From Methanotrichaceae archaeon (GTDB lineage: Archaea > Halobacteriota > Methanosarcinia > Methanotrichales > Methanotrichaceae): a stretch of 64,000 nucleotides of DNA. The position numbers and the translations under genes are program-made. Below the pieces are notes generated by a model. The model ran no database searches and was not told the origin of the DNA. It saw only the letters and a program-made list of their open reading frames with translations. Shown here one piece after another: positions 53,805-59,364 of the stretch (its first letter is position 1; every line of letters begins with the position of its first letter). The stretch lies in the NCBI GenBank assembly GCA_963813075.1, contig CAWEXU010000030.1, positions 32,001-96,000 on the forward strand. The letters are read 5' to 3'.

Positions 53805-55349
53805 CTACTGGGAGAAGATAAAACTTTCCCCGCCATAGGCCTTCTCCGAGACCTCCACCACCAGGGATATGAGATCCTCGGGCCGGCTTATGTAGTAGAC
53901 CTGGCCGAGTCCGGAAAGGGACTCCTCCACATGCCGATCTTTATAGGCCGGATCGATGGAGAAGAGGACGAACCGGCTCACCTCCGAGGCCCTTTTGATA
54001 TCCTCCCATTCCTGGTAGAGATTTTGAATATGGGTGTCTGTGATGCAGAGGATCAGGCAGCCCGGACGGCCTTGAGCCAGCTCCAGTATCCTTTTTCCCG
54101 GTATATGGGTGCGGGTGCAAAAGAACTCCACCAGCACATCCTCCACGGCATTCAGGTCCCGCGTCCAGCTGGCCAGCCGGTACTTCTCGCTGAAGTTTAT
54201 CGCCGCCAACTCCGCCCCCATGGAATGGGCGAACTGGCAGGCCTTGAAGGCGGCCAGGGTCGCCTTATGGCTCTTGGTGCCCTTCTTATGCCCCTCCATG
54301 GAGCGGCTGCTGTCCAGGACGATGAGAAGGTCGGGCACTCCCGCCCTTCCCGGCATCAGGGGGCTGGTCTCATAGTCCCTTTTGTAGGTCGAGACTCCGG
54401 GAATTAGATAGGGGCTCATGCTTTGAGAGTAGGAGACATCCAGATCAGAGCAGGGGTCGGTCAGCCTCCACTTGGTGTAGCCGGATGGGTTTTCCTCCGA
54501 GCGGGCCCTGGGGACCTCTCTGATCTCTATGGAGTAGCTCTGGTCGCGATACCAGCGCTTCAGGTCTCCCCTCTGCCCAAGGACCGCCAGGGCCTCCTCA
54601 TACTCGCCGGCATCAAGGTCCGCAGCACAGAGCAGGGGCACGGCATCTGCGCAGCCCTTCAGGATCTCCTGCGCCCTGACCGGTCCCTGCCCCAGGACCC
54701 CTGGTTCAAAGGCACTCAGGATGCGGGCCATCTCCTGGCACTGCCTGGGCCAGAGGCTCTTGTCCCTGATGCCGGGAGAGAAGATCCGCAGGAGTTGCCC
54801 CTTCTCCGGAAGGGAGCATGGGGGGAGGGGTGCCTCCCAAAACTCCCTTAGAAAGCCCAGTACCACCCGATCTATGGGCATGAGGGCCCGCCCCGCCCGG
54901 CCATCCAGCTCCGCCAGTCTCTTGTAGCCCATCAGCACCAGCTTTTCGTCCCGCGCGCTCCGCTCCAGCCGGAAGGAGTCCGTTACAATATCGGAGAAGA
55001 TGTTCACCATCCTGCGGGCAGATTCTATATCGCCAGGGGAGCCTGGCAAAAGGTCCGATGTAAAATCCGGATGCTCCAGGCCCTTGAGCGCGGCCAGAGC
55101 CAGGAGGGAAGCATTTTCCAGCGATCGAGGGCAGAAGATGTATTGAACTATAAGATGCTCGAAGAGGTTTTCCAGATACCGGGGTCCGAGCTGGATCGCT
55201 TCCCGGTCTAAGGTGATCTGATAGTTCTGGAAGGGAAAGCTGCCCTGGGCTGTGCCATCCGCCCGGCCCAGAACGGGCATAGGGAGGAGCGGCCAGTGCC
55301 AGTTCTCCCGAGAGCTCTGCCAGATCTCAATCCAGCCCCAGGACTCCAT
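53805..55349 (-). CDS. VWA-domain protein
   Basis: C-terminal LLIVLDSSRSM (MIDAS DxSxS), AINFS and CITDT motifs. Confidence 0.85.
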   Translation of the reverse strand: MESWGWIEIWQSSRENWHWPLLPMPVLGRADGTAQGSFPFQNYQITLDREAIQLGPRYLENLFEHLIVQYIFCPRSLENASLLALAALKGLEHPDFTSDLLPGSPGDIESARRMVNIFSDIVTDSFRLERSARDEKLVLMGYKRLAELDGRAGRALMPIDRVVLGFLREFWEAPLPPCSLPEKGQLLRIFSPGIRDKSLWPRQCQEMARILSAFEPGVLGQGPVRAQEILKGCADAVPLLCAADLDAGEYEEALAVLGQRGDLKRWYRDQSYSIEIREVPRARSEENPSGYTKWRLTDPCSDLDVSYSQSMSPYLIPGVSTYKRDYETSPLMPGRAGVPDLLIVLDSSRSMEGHKKGTKSHKATLAAFKACQFAHSMGAELAAINFSEKYRLASWTRDLNAVEDVLVEFFCTRTHIPGKRILELAQGRPGCLILCITDTHIQNLYQEWEDIKRASEVSRFVLFSIDPAYKDRHVEESLSGLGQVYYISRPEDLISLVVEVSEKAYGGESFIFSQ

Positions 55350-56091
55350 CCGCCGCCTCGGGTCCGAATTCCTTCGCCCTTATCTGCCCGTTCTTCATCC
55401 GCCATCCCGCCCTCCTTCCCGCCCGGCCAAAAACGGTGATCCTGCCCCCTTTCATCAGCAATCCCAAATAGTCCCCCGCATCGCCGTGAATGCGCAGGCT
55501 CCCCGCGCTCATCAGCCAGCCCGCTCTCTCCCCGCAGCTGCCCTGGCAGACCACCCTCCCGCCACAGCAGCCCAGGGCCAGGAAGTTGCCGCAGTCTCCT
55601 TTGATCACACCCAGACCCCCGCCCATCCGGCGAAAGGCGTAGTGGCCCGCGCCGGGGGCAACTATCCCCCCGCCGGTCATCTCCTGGCCCAGATAGTCGC
55701 CTGCCGCCTGGCGGAGATAGATCCTGCCCCCTGTCATCCTCTCCCCCACATGCTCTCTGCCCTCATCCAGGATGATGGTGCCCCGGGATAGCTCCAGGCC
55801 GGCATAATCTCTGGCCGGAAGGTGCAGGGGCTCTGGATTCCTCTCAGCGGCAATGCTGGAGATATATCCCCAGATTAGCTGATACTTCTTCCCCGGATCG
55901 GATGCGAGCAGCATCTCAAGGGTGCTGGCATCCAGAGGGAGTAGCTCTTCGATCTCCGCCCGGCTGGGCCTGGTTCCCACCCTATCTGCCAGGTCCTCCA
56001 GGCTGAAGATGGGATCTCCCTCCTGGCTTTTCAGCCTGCGGCCCCTGTTCAGGCCGCGATAAGCGTTGTCCATGAAGCGCGTGAGCTTCAT
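55327..56091 (-). CDS. GXGXG beta-helix protein (FwdC/GltB C-terminal-like)
   Basis: Repeated G..M.GG.I.(V/I).G.AG units. Confidence 0.8.
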   Translation of the reverse strand: MKLTRFMDNAYRGLNRGRRLKSQEGDPIFSLEDLADRVGTRPSRAEIEELLPLDASTLEMLLASDPGKKYQLIWGYISSIAAERNPEPLHLPARDYAGLELSRGTIILDEGREHVGERMTGGRIYLRQAAGDYLGQEMTGGGIVAPGAGHYAFRRMGGGLGVIKGDCGNFLALGCCGGRVVCQGSCGERAGWLMSAGSLRIHGDAGDYLGLLMKGGRITVFGRAGRRAGWRMKNGQIRAKEFGPEAADGVLGLD

Positions 56092-56092
56092 C

Positions 56093-57358
56093 TCATCCTC
56101 TCCTCATCAACTGCTGGAGAGCGGGTATGAAGTCCAGCCGGGCGATGGGATCGTCATAGATCGATAGCTCCTCTATCGCCCTCGATACTGATATCTCCCC
56201 ATCCACTGCCCGGGAGAAGATCAGGTTCATGTCTGCCCGCTCGTTCATAGTGCGATTGATGCTCTTTTCCACCAGTTCTGCCACCAGGGCCAGCTTTCTT
56301 GCCCCATAGTAAGGAGGCCGCTCGATGACGGATCTTACCGGGTTTATGCGGTGCCAGATCACATAGGGAGCCACCGCTTTTAAGACCTCCAGGTCGGCCT
56401 CTCTATCCAGGAGATAGGCAAAAGCGCGGGAAAAGGATCTCAGGTCCTGGCGCACCCGATCTGACAGACCCTCGTCTGCCTGCCAGCAGATGGCCTCCGG
56501 ATTGCCGCTGTAGTGGCAGCCCGGGCACAGACCTCGCGAGGGGCGGGCAGCGGATAGCTGGGTCTTGTCATACGACGGCGCTCTCTCGCAGAGGGTGAAA
56601 TCCCTCACTAAAGAGAGCACTGCCAGCTCCGCCTGCGGGTCCAGCCTCTTTTGGGCCACCTGTCCGGGCAGGGAGTCGAACTCCTGGGAGGTGAAGCGGG
56701 GCAGTTCCTCTGCCAGTTCCCGGACCTCCTTCTCCCTCTCGGAGAGGGCTAGCCCGGCCAGGAAATCGGGCTGATAGGCGGGAACGCAGACAGAGATGCG
56801 GTCCAGCAGGGCCTCGTCCAGGGGATAGGTGGCGGAGAACTCCGGGTTCATGGTCAGATAAAAGCAGGTATCTCCGGGCTCGTACACCTGGCCGGCATAG
56901 CTGATCTTTCTCTTCTTGATTATCTCCAAAAACAGGTTCTGCTTGCCCCCAGGAAAGCGGTTGATCTCATTGATCAGCTTCCAGCGGGATCGGGACCAGG
57001 GAGTCCAGAGAACCGTGCAGGGCCCTTCCTCCTCTCGTGTCCACTGTCTGGGATCAAGAAAGCCCACCATCTTCTCCTCCGTCTGCTCCGGATGGCCGGT
57101 CACCATCCGGTCCTCTACCTGGTCAAAGGATAAAGAGAGGAATGAGGAACCCAGCAGATTGACCAGAGTGGTCTTGTTCGCCCCCATTCCGCCGTAGAGG
57201 AGAAGAGCACGGTTTCGCAGGCAGGCGTTGGCAATAGAGAAGTAGAGCTGAGAGTTGACCCGTTGATCGCCGATGGCAAGATCCTTCCTGGCCACATGCA
57301 GCCTCAGCTCCTCTAAGGCGGAGATCAGGGCTTTTATCTTCTCCAGAGGGTCCGGCAT
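56093..57358 (-). CDS. MoxR-like AAA+ ATPase with non-canonical Walker motifs
   Basis: LLYGGMGANKTT, LINEINR, QNLFLE, TMNP...YPLDEALLDRI. Confidence 0.85.
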   Translation of the reverse strand: MPDPLEKIKALISALEELRLHVARKDLAIGDQRVNSQLYFSIANACLRNRALLLYGGMGANKTTLVNLLGSSFLSLSFDQVEDRMVTGHPEQTEEKMVGFLDPRQWTREEEGPCTVLWTPWSRSRWKLINEINRFPGGKQNLFLEIIKKRKISYAGQVYEPGDTCFYLTMNPEFSATYPLDEALLDRISVCVPAYQPDFLAGLALSEREKEVRELAEELPRFTSQEFDSLPGQVAQKRLDPQAELAVLSLVRDFTLCERAPSYDKTQLSAARPSRGLCPGCHYSGNPEAICWQADEGLSDRVRQDLRSFSRAFAYLLDREADLEVLKAVAPYVIWHRINPVRSVIERPPYYGARKLALVAELVEKSINRTMNERADMNLIFSRAVDGEISVSRAIEELSIYDDPIARLDFIPALQQLMRRG

Positions 57359-57464
57359 AAAAAGATATCTCTAATGCATGCGATATTTAAATCAGGCGAG
57401 AGGAGCGGCGGATTTGTGGATGAAGAAGGGATAGCGACTTTTGGCTTGAGAGAAGATAGGAACA

Positions 57465-57504
57465 GCAAAAGTCAGTGTAGGAGGGATTGAAGATTGACTT
57501 TTGC
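57465..57504 (-). ncRNA. Candidate small RNA unit 3 (hairpin with AUCCCUCC loop)
   Basis: Perfect 10-bp stem GCAAAAGUCA/UGACUUUUGC; TTATATT box 24 nt upstream. Confidence 0.55.
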
Positions 57505-57598
57505 CAGGAATCCATACGACATAAGACGAATATAACTCTTTCGGGCGATAACGATCGACGTGATTTCTATTGGAAGGACTTTCCGAAAAGGAGGGAGG

Positions 57599-57645
57599 GG
57601 CAAAAGTCACCATACGGGAGGGATTGATGGCCGTCGACTTTTGCC
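57599..57645 (-). ncRNA. Candidate small RNA unit 2 (hairpin with AUCCCUCC loop)
   Basis: Stem GGCAAAAGUC/GACUUUUGCC; AAAAGG-TTTAAAT BRE/TATA about 24 nt upstream; CCCUCCUUUU tail. Confidence 0.55.
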
Positions 57646-57734
57646 TGCGTTTATTACGGCATTTGACGATTTAAACCTTTTGGCCGCATGCCTGCATCGG
57701 TTTATTAGCTTAATTTAATGTAAATAGGAGGGGG

Positions 57735-57777
57735 GCAAAAGTCATTTTATAGGAGGGATGTGGGTATTGACCTTTGC
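57735..57777 (-). ncRNA. Candidate small RNA unit 1 (hairpin with AUCCCUCC loop)
   Basis: Stem GCAAAGGUCA/UGACUUUUGC (one G-U); AAATATATA box 24 nt upstream. Confidence 0.55.
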
Positions 57778-57939
57778 ACAACTACTATACGATCATCAAC
57801 GTATATATTTGTTTCCGTCTGAAGCAATCGCCGATAGAATGCTTCTGCCAGGATGTCCTGCCAGGATGAAATGGGTGGACATGCCAGCATGAGTCATATT
57901 GGCACTCCACCTCAATACTGCCATCCGCATAATAGGATC

Positions 57940-59271
57940 CTAATCAGTCATTGTAGAGCCATCATAGATGCTGAATGTCGGATCGATCTCCCCCTTGAAT
58001 CTCTCCAGATAAAAGCCCATTATCTCCCTCATTCTCTCCACGGGATTCACCTCGAAGACATCCTTTTTATAAGCGCCGCCAAAAGAATCATTAAAATCGC
58101 CGAAATCGACATCCTCCCGGATCAGATGCTTTGTCATCTCATATATCTCGGTTCCAGGAATGGGAGTTAAAAGAAATACGTTTATCCATTTTGGCTTTGA
58201 TTCGGCAATCATCCTCTTGGTCAGATCTATATCCTCCTGAGTCTCACCGGGAATTCCCACTATCAAGAACATCCCGGTGACGATTCCGACCTCATTGGTC
58301 AGCTTAAAAGCCCTTATTATCTGCTCAACGGTAATTCCCTTGTTCAGGAGGTCCAGGATCGCCGGGCTCCCGCTCTCCACCCCAAAGCCAAGCTCGACGC
58401 AGCCCGCCTGTTTCATTCGAGACAATATCTCAAAATCAACCGTATCCACCCTGGCCATGGCCTCCCACTTCTTCCCAGGAAGCTCTTTTTCCATGGCATT
58501 ACAAAAATCAAGCAACCTCTTTCTGTTCTGGGTGAACAGATCGTCATCAAATGAGACGATTTCAACATCGTATTCATCATACAGCAGTCTCATCTCCTCG
58601 ATGATGTTATGGACGGATCGAAATCTGATCTGATTTCCGAAGACGGCTTTGCTGCAAAATCGGCAGGAGTACCGGCAGCCTCGAGCGGTGATTATCGGGG
58701 AAGTAGCACCCCCCAAATGCGTTTTCCATGGATCGGTATATTTATGCATATCCAGTAGATGCCTCGCGGGATAGGGGATCTCATCAAGATCTTTTATAAA
58801 TTCCCTGGGAGGCGTCCTTACCACATCCCCCTTCGAGACAAAGGAGATACCCTTAACATCATCCAGGGGTAGATCGTTCTCTATCGCCCTGACCAGCTCG
58901 ACTATGGTCCTTTCGCCCTCTCCATAGCATACTATTGAGTAGCCGCTCTCGTGCAGCCTGGAGCTGGGCAGACACATGACCCCCGGTCCGCCGATCATAA
59001 AGACAGCATTCTCTCTTCCCACAATGCCCGGAATTTTCATTGCCTCACCGAGCAATGGAATAGTTGAGGTCACCCCGACGATGTCCGCGTTCAATTCAGT
59101 GATTTTTTTAATGTAATCATCATAGTCGCAGATAAACCCGTCAATTATTTCTATTTCTAAATCATTATTATAAGCTAAGAGTGATGACGCCAAATACGCC
59201 AGCCCTAAAGGAGGCTCTGGACAAATGGAAAATGCCGTTCTGCCATTGGGCTGCACGAATGATATCTTCAT
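57940..59271 (-). CDS. B12-binding radical SAM protein (class B methyltransferase-like)
   Basis: PPLGLAYLAS, GGP, YGEGE, RGCRYSCRFC, DDLFT, GVESGS and GIPGET motifs. Confidence 0.9.
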   Translation of the reverse strand: MKISFVQPNGRTAFSICPEPPLGLAYLASSLLAYNNDLEIEIIDGFICDYDDYIKKITELNADIVGVTSTIPLLGEAMKIPGIVGRENAVFMIGGPGVMCLPSSRLHESGYSIVCYGEGERTIVELVRAIENDLPLDDVKGISFVSKGDVVRTPPREFIKDLDEIPYPARHLLDMHKYTDPWKTHLGGATSPIITARGCRYSCRFCSKAVFGNQIRFRSVHNIIEEMRLLYDEYDVEIVSFDDDLFTQNRKRLLDFCNAMEKELPGKKWEAMARVDTVDFEILSRMKQAGCVELGFGVESGSPAILDLLNKGITVEQIIRAFKLTNEVGIVTGMFLIVGIPGETQEDIDLTKRMIAESKPKWINVFLLTPIPGTEIYEMTKHLIREDVDFGDFNDSFGGAYKKDVFEVNPVERMREIMGFYLERFKGEIDPTFSIYDGSTMTD

Positions 59272-59364
59272 AATTAATTGGTCCTCCACAAAATATATTT
59301 ACATTTTCCTGAAGAAGGAAGTTCGGGCAAAAGAGTAATTAGATCTGCCGGAGAAAGGGAATTG

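Follow-up and report, generated by a model that had tools for sequence, protein, structure and literature searches.

Few archaeal small RNAs (sRNAs) have known targets. Among methanoarchaea, the excerpts of PMC5867862 describe two trans-acting RNAs of M. mazei, sRNA41 and sRNA154, that mask ribosome-binding sites (RBSs), sRNA154 doing so through a hairpin loop (loop 2), as is proposed here for the elements of a Methanotrichaceae archaeon; both are presented there as single genes, unlike the 1-21-copy family with a single hairpin and one fixed stem reported below. The M. mazei pair sRNA162/sRNA171 is likewise a duplicated archaeal sRNA in which an unpaired segment masks the RBS; in contrast to the present elements, it is 191 nt long, folds into three stem-loops, targets neighbouring genes and has homologues reported in Methanosarcina only (PMC3510493, in part). 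Outside the archaea, the cuckoo/CcsR RNAs of alphaproteobacteria are also paralogous, often clustered and equipped with an anti-Shine-Dalgarno (anti-SD) motif in their hairpin loops, according to the portion of PMC4615179 that deals with them; the same portion gives them 2-4 hairpins, variable in the stem and constant in the CCUCCUCCC loop, and describes the RSs0680 cluster as co-transcribed. By comparison, the elements described here have one hairpin, a fixed stem, a variable loop and a promoter per unit. Their loops read UCCC(U/A)CC instead of CCUCCUCCC and no RNA carries 2-4 adjacent hairpins with variable stems, so that the resemblance to cuckoo RNAs drawn in an earlier note on this DNA stands for the mode of action and falls for membership. 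The cold-induced nine-member sRNA group of Methanolobus psychrophilus is set apart by the supplement text of PMC5378194, from which the stem motifs are absent and in which the probes imply purine-rich RNAs. In literature outside subscription papers, combining Methanothrix or Methanosaeta with sRNA brought up no described case, and a broader archaeal search brought up Methanosarcina sRNAs only.

The elements were found in the window, the 64,000-nucleotide stretch of DNA that was analysed, flanked by a B12 radical-SAM gene on one side and an AAA-type ATPase gene on the other. Three minus-strand units run in each case from a BRE/TATA promoter through a palindrome and a 9-10-bp hairpin with a AUCCCUCC loop to a pyrimidine tail (Table 1). 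They belong to a conserved multicopy promoter-plus-hairpin family, quite probably transcribed as separate RNAs of about 60 nt that would act in trans as translational repressors with variable target loops. Much of what the earlier note had read in the array was borne out: GCAAAAGTC starts at 57465, 57600 and 57735, its only positions on the plus strand of the window; BRE/TATA, hairpin and ATCCCTCC in the loop are present in every unit (3/3); and the degenerate half-unit is there, with a 5' arm and a decayed loop, lacking 3' arm and promoter. The stem-pair pattern has five strand-matches in the window, all at the three units, and none in each of 100 shuffles; folding z-scores (minus strand/plus strand) are -2.6/-1.4, -3.1/-1.8 and -4.4/-3.8 for the three units. 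Two points call for correction. The 135-bp spacing, presented as exact, is accidental (128/138 in genome G005, 148/135 in G032, with 1-4 units per locus), and the stretch between TATA box and hairpin is not without conservation, as it contains the palindrome CG[GT]C-N4-G[ACT]CG directly 3' of the TATA box. A scan for bacterial promoters and terminators gave no signal above chance.

Table 1. Parts of the array and its flank, in window positions
Feature	Position	Strand	Remarks
Unit 1 BRE (CGGAAA) + TATA box AATATATA	57802..57817	-	position kept family-wide
Unit 1 promoter-proximal palindrome, degenerate; putative operator	57790..57801	-	
Unit 1 predicted sRNA	57722..57779	-	stem 57777-57768 with 57744-57735, AUCCCUCC loop, CCCUCC tail
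Unit 1 predicted sRNA start	57779 or 57777	-	inferred
Unit 2 BRE (CCAAAA) + TATA box (TTTAAA)	57670..57683	-	
Unit 2 palindrome CGTCAAATGCCG; putative operator	57657..57668	-	
Unit 2 predicted sRNA	57586..57645	-	stem 57645-57636 with 57608-57599; putative start at G57645
Unit 2 seed AUCAAUCCCUCC	57617..57628	-	exact complement of GGAGGGATTGAT site preceding CTG start, secreted-protein gene G000 C5:95830
Unit 3 BRE (CGAAA) + TATA box (TTATAT)	57530..57543	-	
Unit 3 palindrome CGTCTTATGTCG; putative operator	57517..57528	-	
Unit 3 predicted sRNA	57451..57505	-	stem 57505-57495 with 57474-57464; decayed tail
Fourth unit, remnant	57425..57445	-	5' arm, decayed loop only
AAA-type ATPase gene, flanking	56093..57358	-	marks conserved locus, outside the element

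The surroundings offer some observations of their own. Window positions 53805-57358 form an apparent operon of the AAA-type ATPase, a GXGXG protein and a 514-aa protein, the last with no Pfam or NCBIfam match. The B12 radical-SAM gene (window 57940-59289) separates the array from pfkB here and is missing from that position in G072. Units 3 and 1 have extra palindrome-like sites ahead of their BRE (57552-57562 and 57826-57835), and these are present in relatives too.

The array is only part of a much larger set. In what follows, G denotes genomes (G000 being the host genome), g genera, f families, C contigs and L loci. Named homologues of one of its proteins assign the host genome to Methanothrix. 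By covariance model, this genome has 13 full copies (E <= 5.1e-7) and two promoter-only traces, the array supplying 3 of the 13. None of the 13 overlaps a gene by rough gene calls, hence they are intergenic; the ten outside the array are dispersed, with unrelated neighbours and differing orientations. The search of Methanotrichaceae genomes that the earlier note had suggested recovered the family in every genome searched (model R1: 101/101 genomes, 16/16 genera, 1-21 matches each). Across the phylum, the same model has matches in 12 of 151 genomes. Model R2, a covariance model that includes the promoter, has matches in 92 of 121 genomes of the class, distributed as 60/60 in f1, 27/55 in f3 (presumably Methanosarcinaceae), 3/3 in f29, 2/2 in f30 and 0/1 in f2; copies outside f1 are mostly single, and the model finds none in g6 (0/14) or g86 (0/5), genera that appear to be Methanosarcina. 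Of 22 loci, 20 have the array ahead of the ATPase gene, the number of units ranging from 1 to 4 and the spacing varying; in another genus the array is found at the same ATPase gene as well. Conservation across the whole family supports the proposal of paralogous minus-strand RNAs with their own promoters and anti-SD loops. In Rfam 15, the sole covariance-model match is a weak one that falls outside the array (E 0.7); 12 further loci have none.

Three further observations concern copies and look-alikes. A near-identical duplicated block with one sRNA copy occurs at G000 C5:6192-9240 and C30:479832-482840, and is either a real duplication or bin contamination. Genomes lacking the family carry elements with a similar promoter and C-rich loop and different stems (L253, L254, L255), possibly analogous sRNAs, none of which has an Rfam match. 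In G026, GGAGGGATTTGATG has nine matches; the five inspected (L392, L396, L400, L408, L410) have identical flanks and are probably an insertion sequence.

The anatomy of the family was drawn from 94 distinct copies. Promoter geometry is fixed, with the BRE at about -38, the TATA box at -31 to -26 and an AT-rich -12/-11; a G stands at -1, just before the stem, in 74 of the 94. This geometry fits the positions given in the excerpts of PMC5378194 (TATA at -23 to -30, BRE at -35) and was counted in favour of sRNAs with their own promoters. The strict BRE-TATA pattern occurs on the sense side of 48/94 copies and on the antisense side of 2/94. The palindrome is probably an operator, since it lies upstream of the predicted start. 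It recalls the MsvR operator TTCG-N7-9-CGAA, a similar palindrome adjoining the TATA box in the part of PMC3729527 that defines the motif; this box is exact in four f3 copies and in none of the 94 Methanothrix-type promoters, 17 of which have it with one mismatch. No V4R domain was found in G000, a genome 83% complete. A TATA-plus-palindrome promoter without hairpin also precedes a few secreted- or repeat-protein genes (G000 C13:140883, C18:28993, C30:227278), possible members of the same regulon.

The stem carries the strand argument. Over 801 cells of the 9-bp stem, from 89 of the 94 copies (five divergent ones left out), 739 are Watson-Crick pairs, 61 G-U and a single one A-C, so that the reasoning which the earlier note had applied to one substitution holds for unit 1 and for the whole family. 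Although 53 of the 61 wobbles were permitted by the search pattern itself, the pattern was applied to both strands, and every wobble lies on the C-rich one. Such a bias needs single-stranded RNA. Stem cells are paired in 95.6% of cases, falling to 55% or less when the arms are slid. The conserved 10-bp stem of the original description is invariant over 9 bp, its tenth pair being variable. Checking it for covariation returned almost no two-sided change (1 of 11 pairs, and by eye also two distant copies, L207 and L252), because the stem is nearly invariant.

This invariance suggests another use of the hairpin, in which the stem would be held by a protein and the loop would act as guide; such a ribonucleoprotein would locate start regions and then cleave, destabilise or sequester the mRNA beyond merely masking it. 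The exact stem sequence is kept across several families and changes almost only by G-U wobble, which structure alone would not require, and the loops vary as guides do. We nevertheless regard this mechanism as unlikely: no conserved protein gene lies beside the copies, whose neighbours differ, and the 5' arm resembles the promoter palindrome located about 22 bp upstream, a likeness and a distance through which a DNA-level constraint could explain the invariant stem.

In the loops, the UCCC(U/A)CC core differs from the 16S tail GAUCACCUCCU. The loop motif once called invariant is not so family-wide, AUCCCUCC occurring in 2 of 52 non-array copies; it is typical of array loci (30/42 copies). CAT/CAU stands 4-10 nt 5' of the CC(T/A/G)CC core in 55 of 87 loops, the 7 copies lacking the core being dropped, against a shuffle mean of 15.7 and maximum of 29; related loops are not independent in this count, and with the largest class excluded the figure is 30 of 62 versus 10.6 when shuffled. 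Loop classes are kept across genera.

On the preferred reading, that of trans-acting repressors, each copy would be transcribed separately from a start roughly 25 nt downstream of the TATA box, at the G of GGCAAA, and the RNA would end in the pyrimidine tail after some 60 nt. A dimeric factor bound at the palindrome may place the copies under shared control. The stem would present an open loop, able to pair with the RBS, spacer and start codon of particular mRNAs; the 30S subunit would be kept out and translation repressed. The proposal builds on the architecture, strand, intergenic position and conservation of the elements, the anti-SD and anti-AUG content of their loops and one compensatory change. 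With RBS-masking sRNAs, the elements share intergenic position with an own promoter and, for one sibling, conserved target complementarity.

That sibling, at C4:70093, belongs to class A. A 16-nt stretch of its sequence complements GGUGGGAAAGAAAUG, the start region of two tandem genes that encode 240-aa cysteine-rich secreted proteins, and the pairing spans the ribosome-binding site and the start codon. The secreted-protein gene is the best of 1694 start regions (score 16), and 0 of 150 flank shuffles match as well. Within g1, the genus of the host, the class-A RNA is present in 29 of 36 genomes and the 240-aa protein in all 36. In G090, from another genus, the orthologous gene tops 1399 start regions for the counterpart RNA (target site GGGAACGAA, loop CGUUCCC), with a score that is not significant alone (20/150 shuffles). 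A diagnostic letter of the RNA, left free, is U (T) in 53 class-A rows of g1 and G in none; it is G in 9 rows, which come from 7 genomes in 5 other genera, and also in 4 g14 genomes. The facing letter of the mRNA is A in 28/30 g1 copies and C or T in 22/22 copies outside g1. At the level of sequence, this is a compensatory RNA-mRNA change between genera, U-A in g1 and G-C in six others, and it probably reflects a single evolutionary event. The sibling letter of G078 mismatches both target copies seen, and no class-A sibling was found in 5/5 g13/g16 genomes. As the loop of one sibling and the ribosome-binding site of its target have changed together, the RNAs likely block translation of chosen genes. 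The idea that variable flanks choose the targets is upheld for this sibling and weakly for units 2 and 3 of the window. Class-A copies also lie about 170 bp downstream of a gene for the chromatin protein MC1 in G033 and G025, and adjoin the predicted target gene in G012 and G016 (loci L017, L073, L056; G016:C14:43884-45585).

The 240-aa secreted protein (protein A) is tandem, multicopy, cysteine-rich and beta-rich (L031 = G000 C30:176277-182349), has 2-19 matches per genome and is restricted to f1 among the genomes searched. It has no PDB, Pfam or Atlas match; its model (pLDDT 54) is mostly beta, and the best structural hit (Z 6.1, rmsd 5.0 over 126 residues) is non-specific. These proteins are candidates for a sheath or surface fibre.

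For the units of the window, the likely target class is that of GGAGGGAU-type start regions, the best candidate for units 2 and 3 being a second secreted protein with a CTG start (protein B, with no Pfam match). When near-cognate starts are allowed, the GGAGGGATTGAT-CTG of this gene is the exact complement of the unit 2 seed; units 2, 3 and 1 pair with the site over 12, 11 and 8 nt. In the ranking of start regions in G000, shuffles of units 2, 3 and 1 match as well in 6, 45 and 143 of 150 cases, and unit 1 has no specific target among the start regions ranked. G005, G074 and G078 have the identical site, as do 41 of the 45 close orthologues in which a start was located; GGAGGGA is used by 62 of the 63 members of the protein family for which a start was found (80 loci, 17 of them with none), and array RNAs from several genera retain the unit 2 seed. 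Conservation at the gene start reaches past the paired stretch, the G090 orthologue has no perfect partner, the CTG start itself may need a strong SD, and signal-peptide genes are not enriched at GGAGGGA starts (6/28 versus 28/160). The link of units 2 and 3 to this gene is thus weaker than the class-A case, and we would call it evenly balanced. With AUG, GUG and UUG starts, the best match of unit 2 is MC1 (score 14, 6/150 shuffles), which is not significant over 12 tests and pairs poorly in several relatives; MC1 is possibly an additional target. The exact GGAGGGATTGATGG occurs in 5 genomes only at the elements themselves, and a looser version of the pattern has no gene common to the genomes. 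One MC1 start in G000 matching the 3' arm and tail was dropped, as it is not kept in relatives, and so was target ranking by RNAduplex, which was too noisy.

The CTG gene is also unusual in itself. Near-cognate starts are apparent across its protein family (L461-L540), CTG in 43/45 close orthologues and ACG in 9 paralogues. In the gene itself (L437:330-350 = G000 C5:95830-95850), an upstream frame of five codons shares nucleotides with the SD, and its stop does so with the CTG.

Should flanks matter little, the RNAs might be general anti-SD decoys that damp many SD-led mRNAs. Only one of the 12 G000 copies tested, the C4:70093 sibling, clearly beats its own shuffles, and five G090 copies score 9, 9, 103, 25 and 20 of 150; most copies thus lack a target above shuffles. 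A second CCCUCC lies 3' of the stem, and GGAGGGA also precedes many core genes, among them MC1 (26/31 orthologues) and acetate permease. Against this stands the retention of loop classes across genera, with one class changing in step with its target, which makes decoys very unlikely. A G000-G090 comparison of SD types has just 3 GGAGGGA-type pairs out of 110.

Regulatory repeats acting at the DNA level, or a structured leader for the ATPase operon, are highly improbable alternatives to free RNAs. Palindromes do recur in the promoter and, in the small shares of assembled RNA contigs covered, one contig spans the array and continues into the ATPase gene; however, the ten other copies have neither neighbours nor orientation in common, the G-U strand bias requires single-stranded RNA, and a TATA-like box belonging to the ATPase gene itself lies about 26 nt upstream of its ATG. 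In G005, contigs from two RNA studies end 10-15 nt before reaching the predicted start of unit 1, which is at most a weak hint because hairpins break contigs. None of the assembled contigs marks out a discrete transcript. That the elements are mobile repeats (MITEs or IS ends), or antisense partners of an opposite-strand small peptide (type I toxin-antitoxin), is hardly credible and largely refuted: the elements are multicopy and 55/94 have an SD and ATG on the opposite strand, but the same locus is retained across genera, viral sequences hold 53 stem-pattern matches and 0 full elements, the opposite-strand promoter pattern is nearly absent (2/94), and no conserved peptide emerges, as the frames differ (26/20/7) and lengths scatter from 3 to 73 aa.

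A more far-reaching reading can be imagined, which we consider doubtful: an archaeal programmable guide system, in which a protein would read the constant stem, an exchangeable loop would be directed at single start regions and one operator would turn on up to about 20 guides at once, silencing secreted beta-rich envelope proteins and MC1. Several of these envelope-protein targets would have CTG or ACG starts, and the hosts are the dominant acetate-using methanogens.

Methanothrix is a major source of methane, as stated in the excerpts of PMC10470525. The family points to post-transcriptional control of secreted proteins that are so far uncharacterised in these organisms. Its design is simple, a fixed stem with a variable loop, and a natural compensatory RNA-mRNA pair is available; if the RNAs work as predicted, they would provide a compact gene knock-down tool for methanogens.
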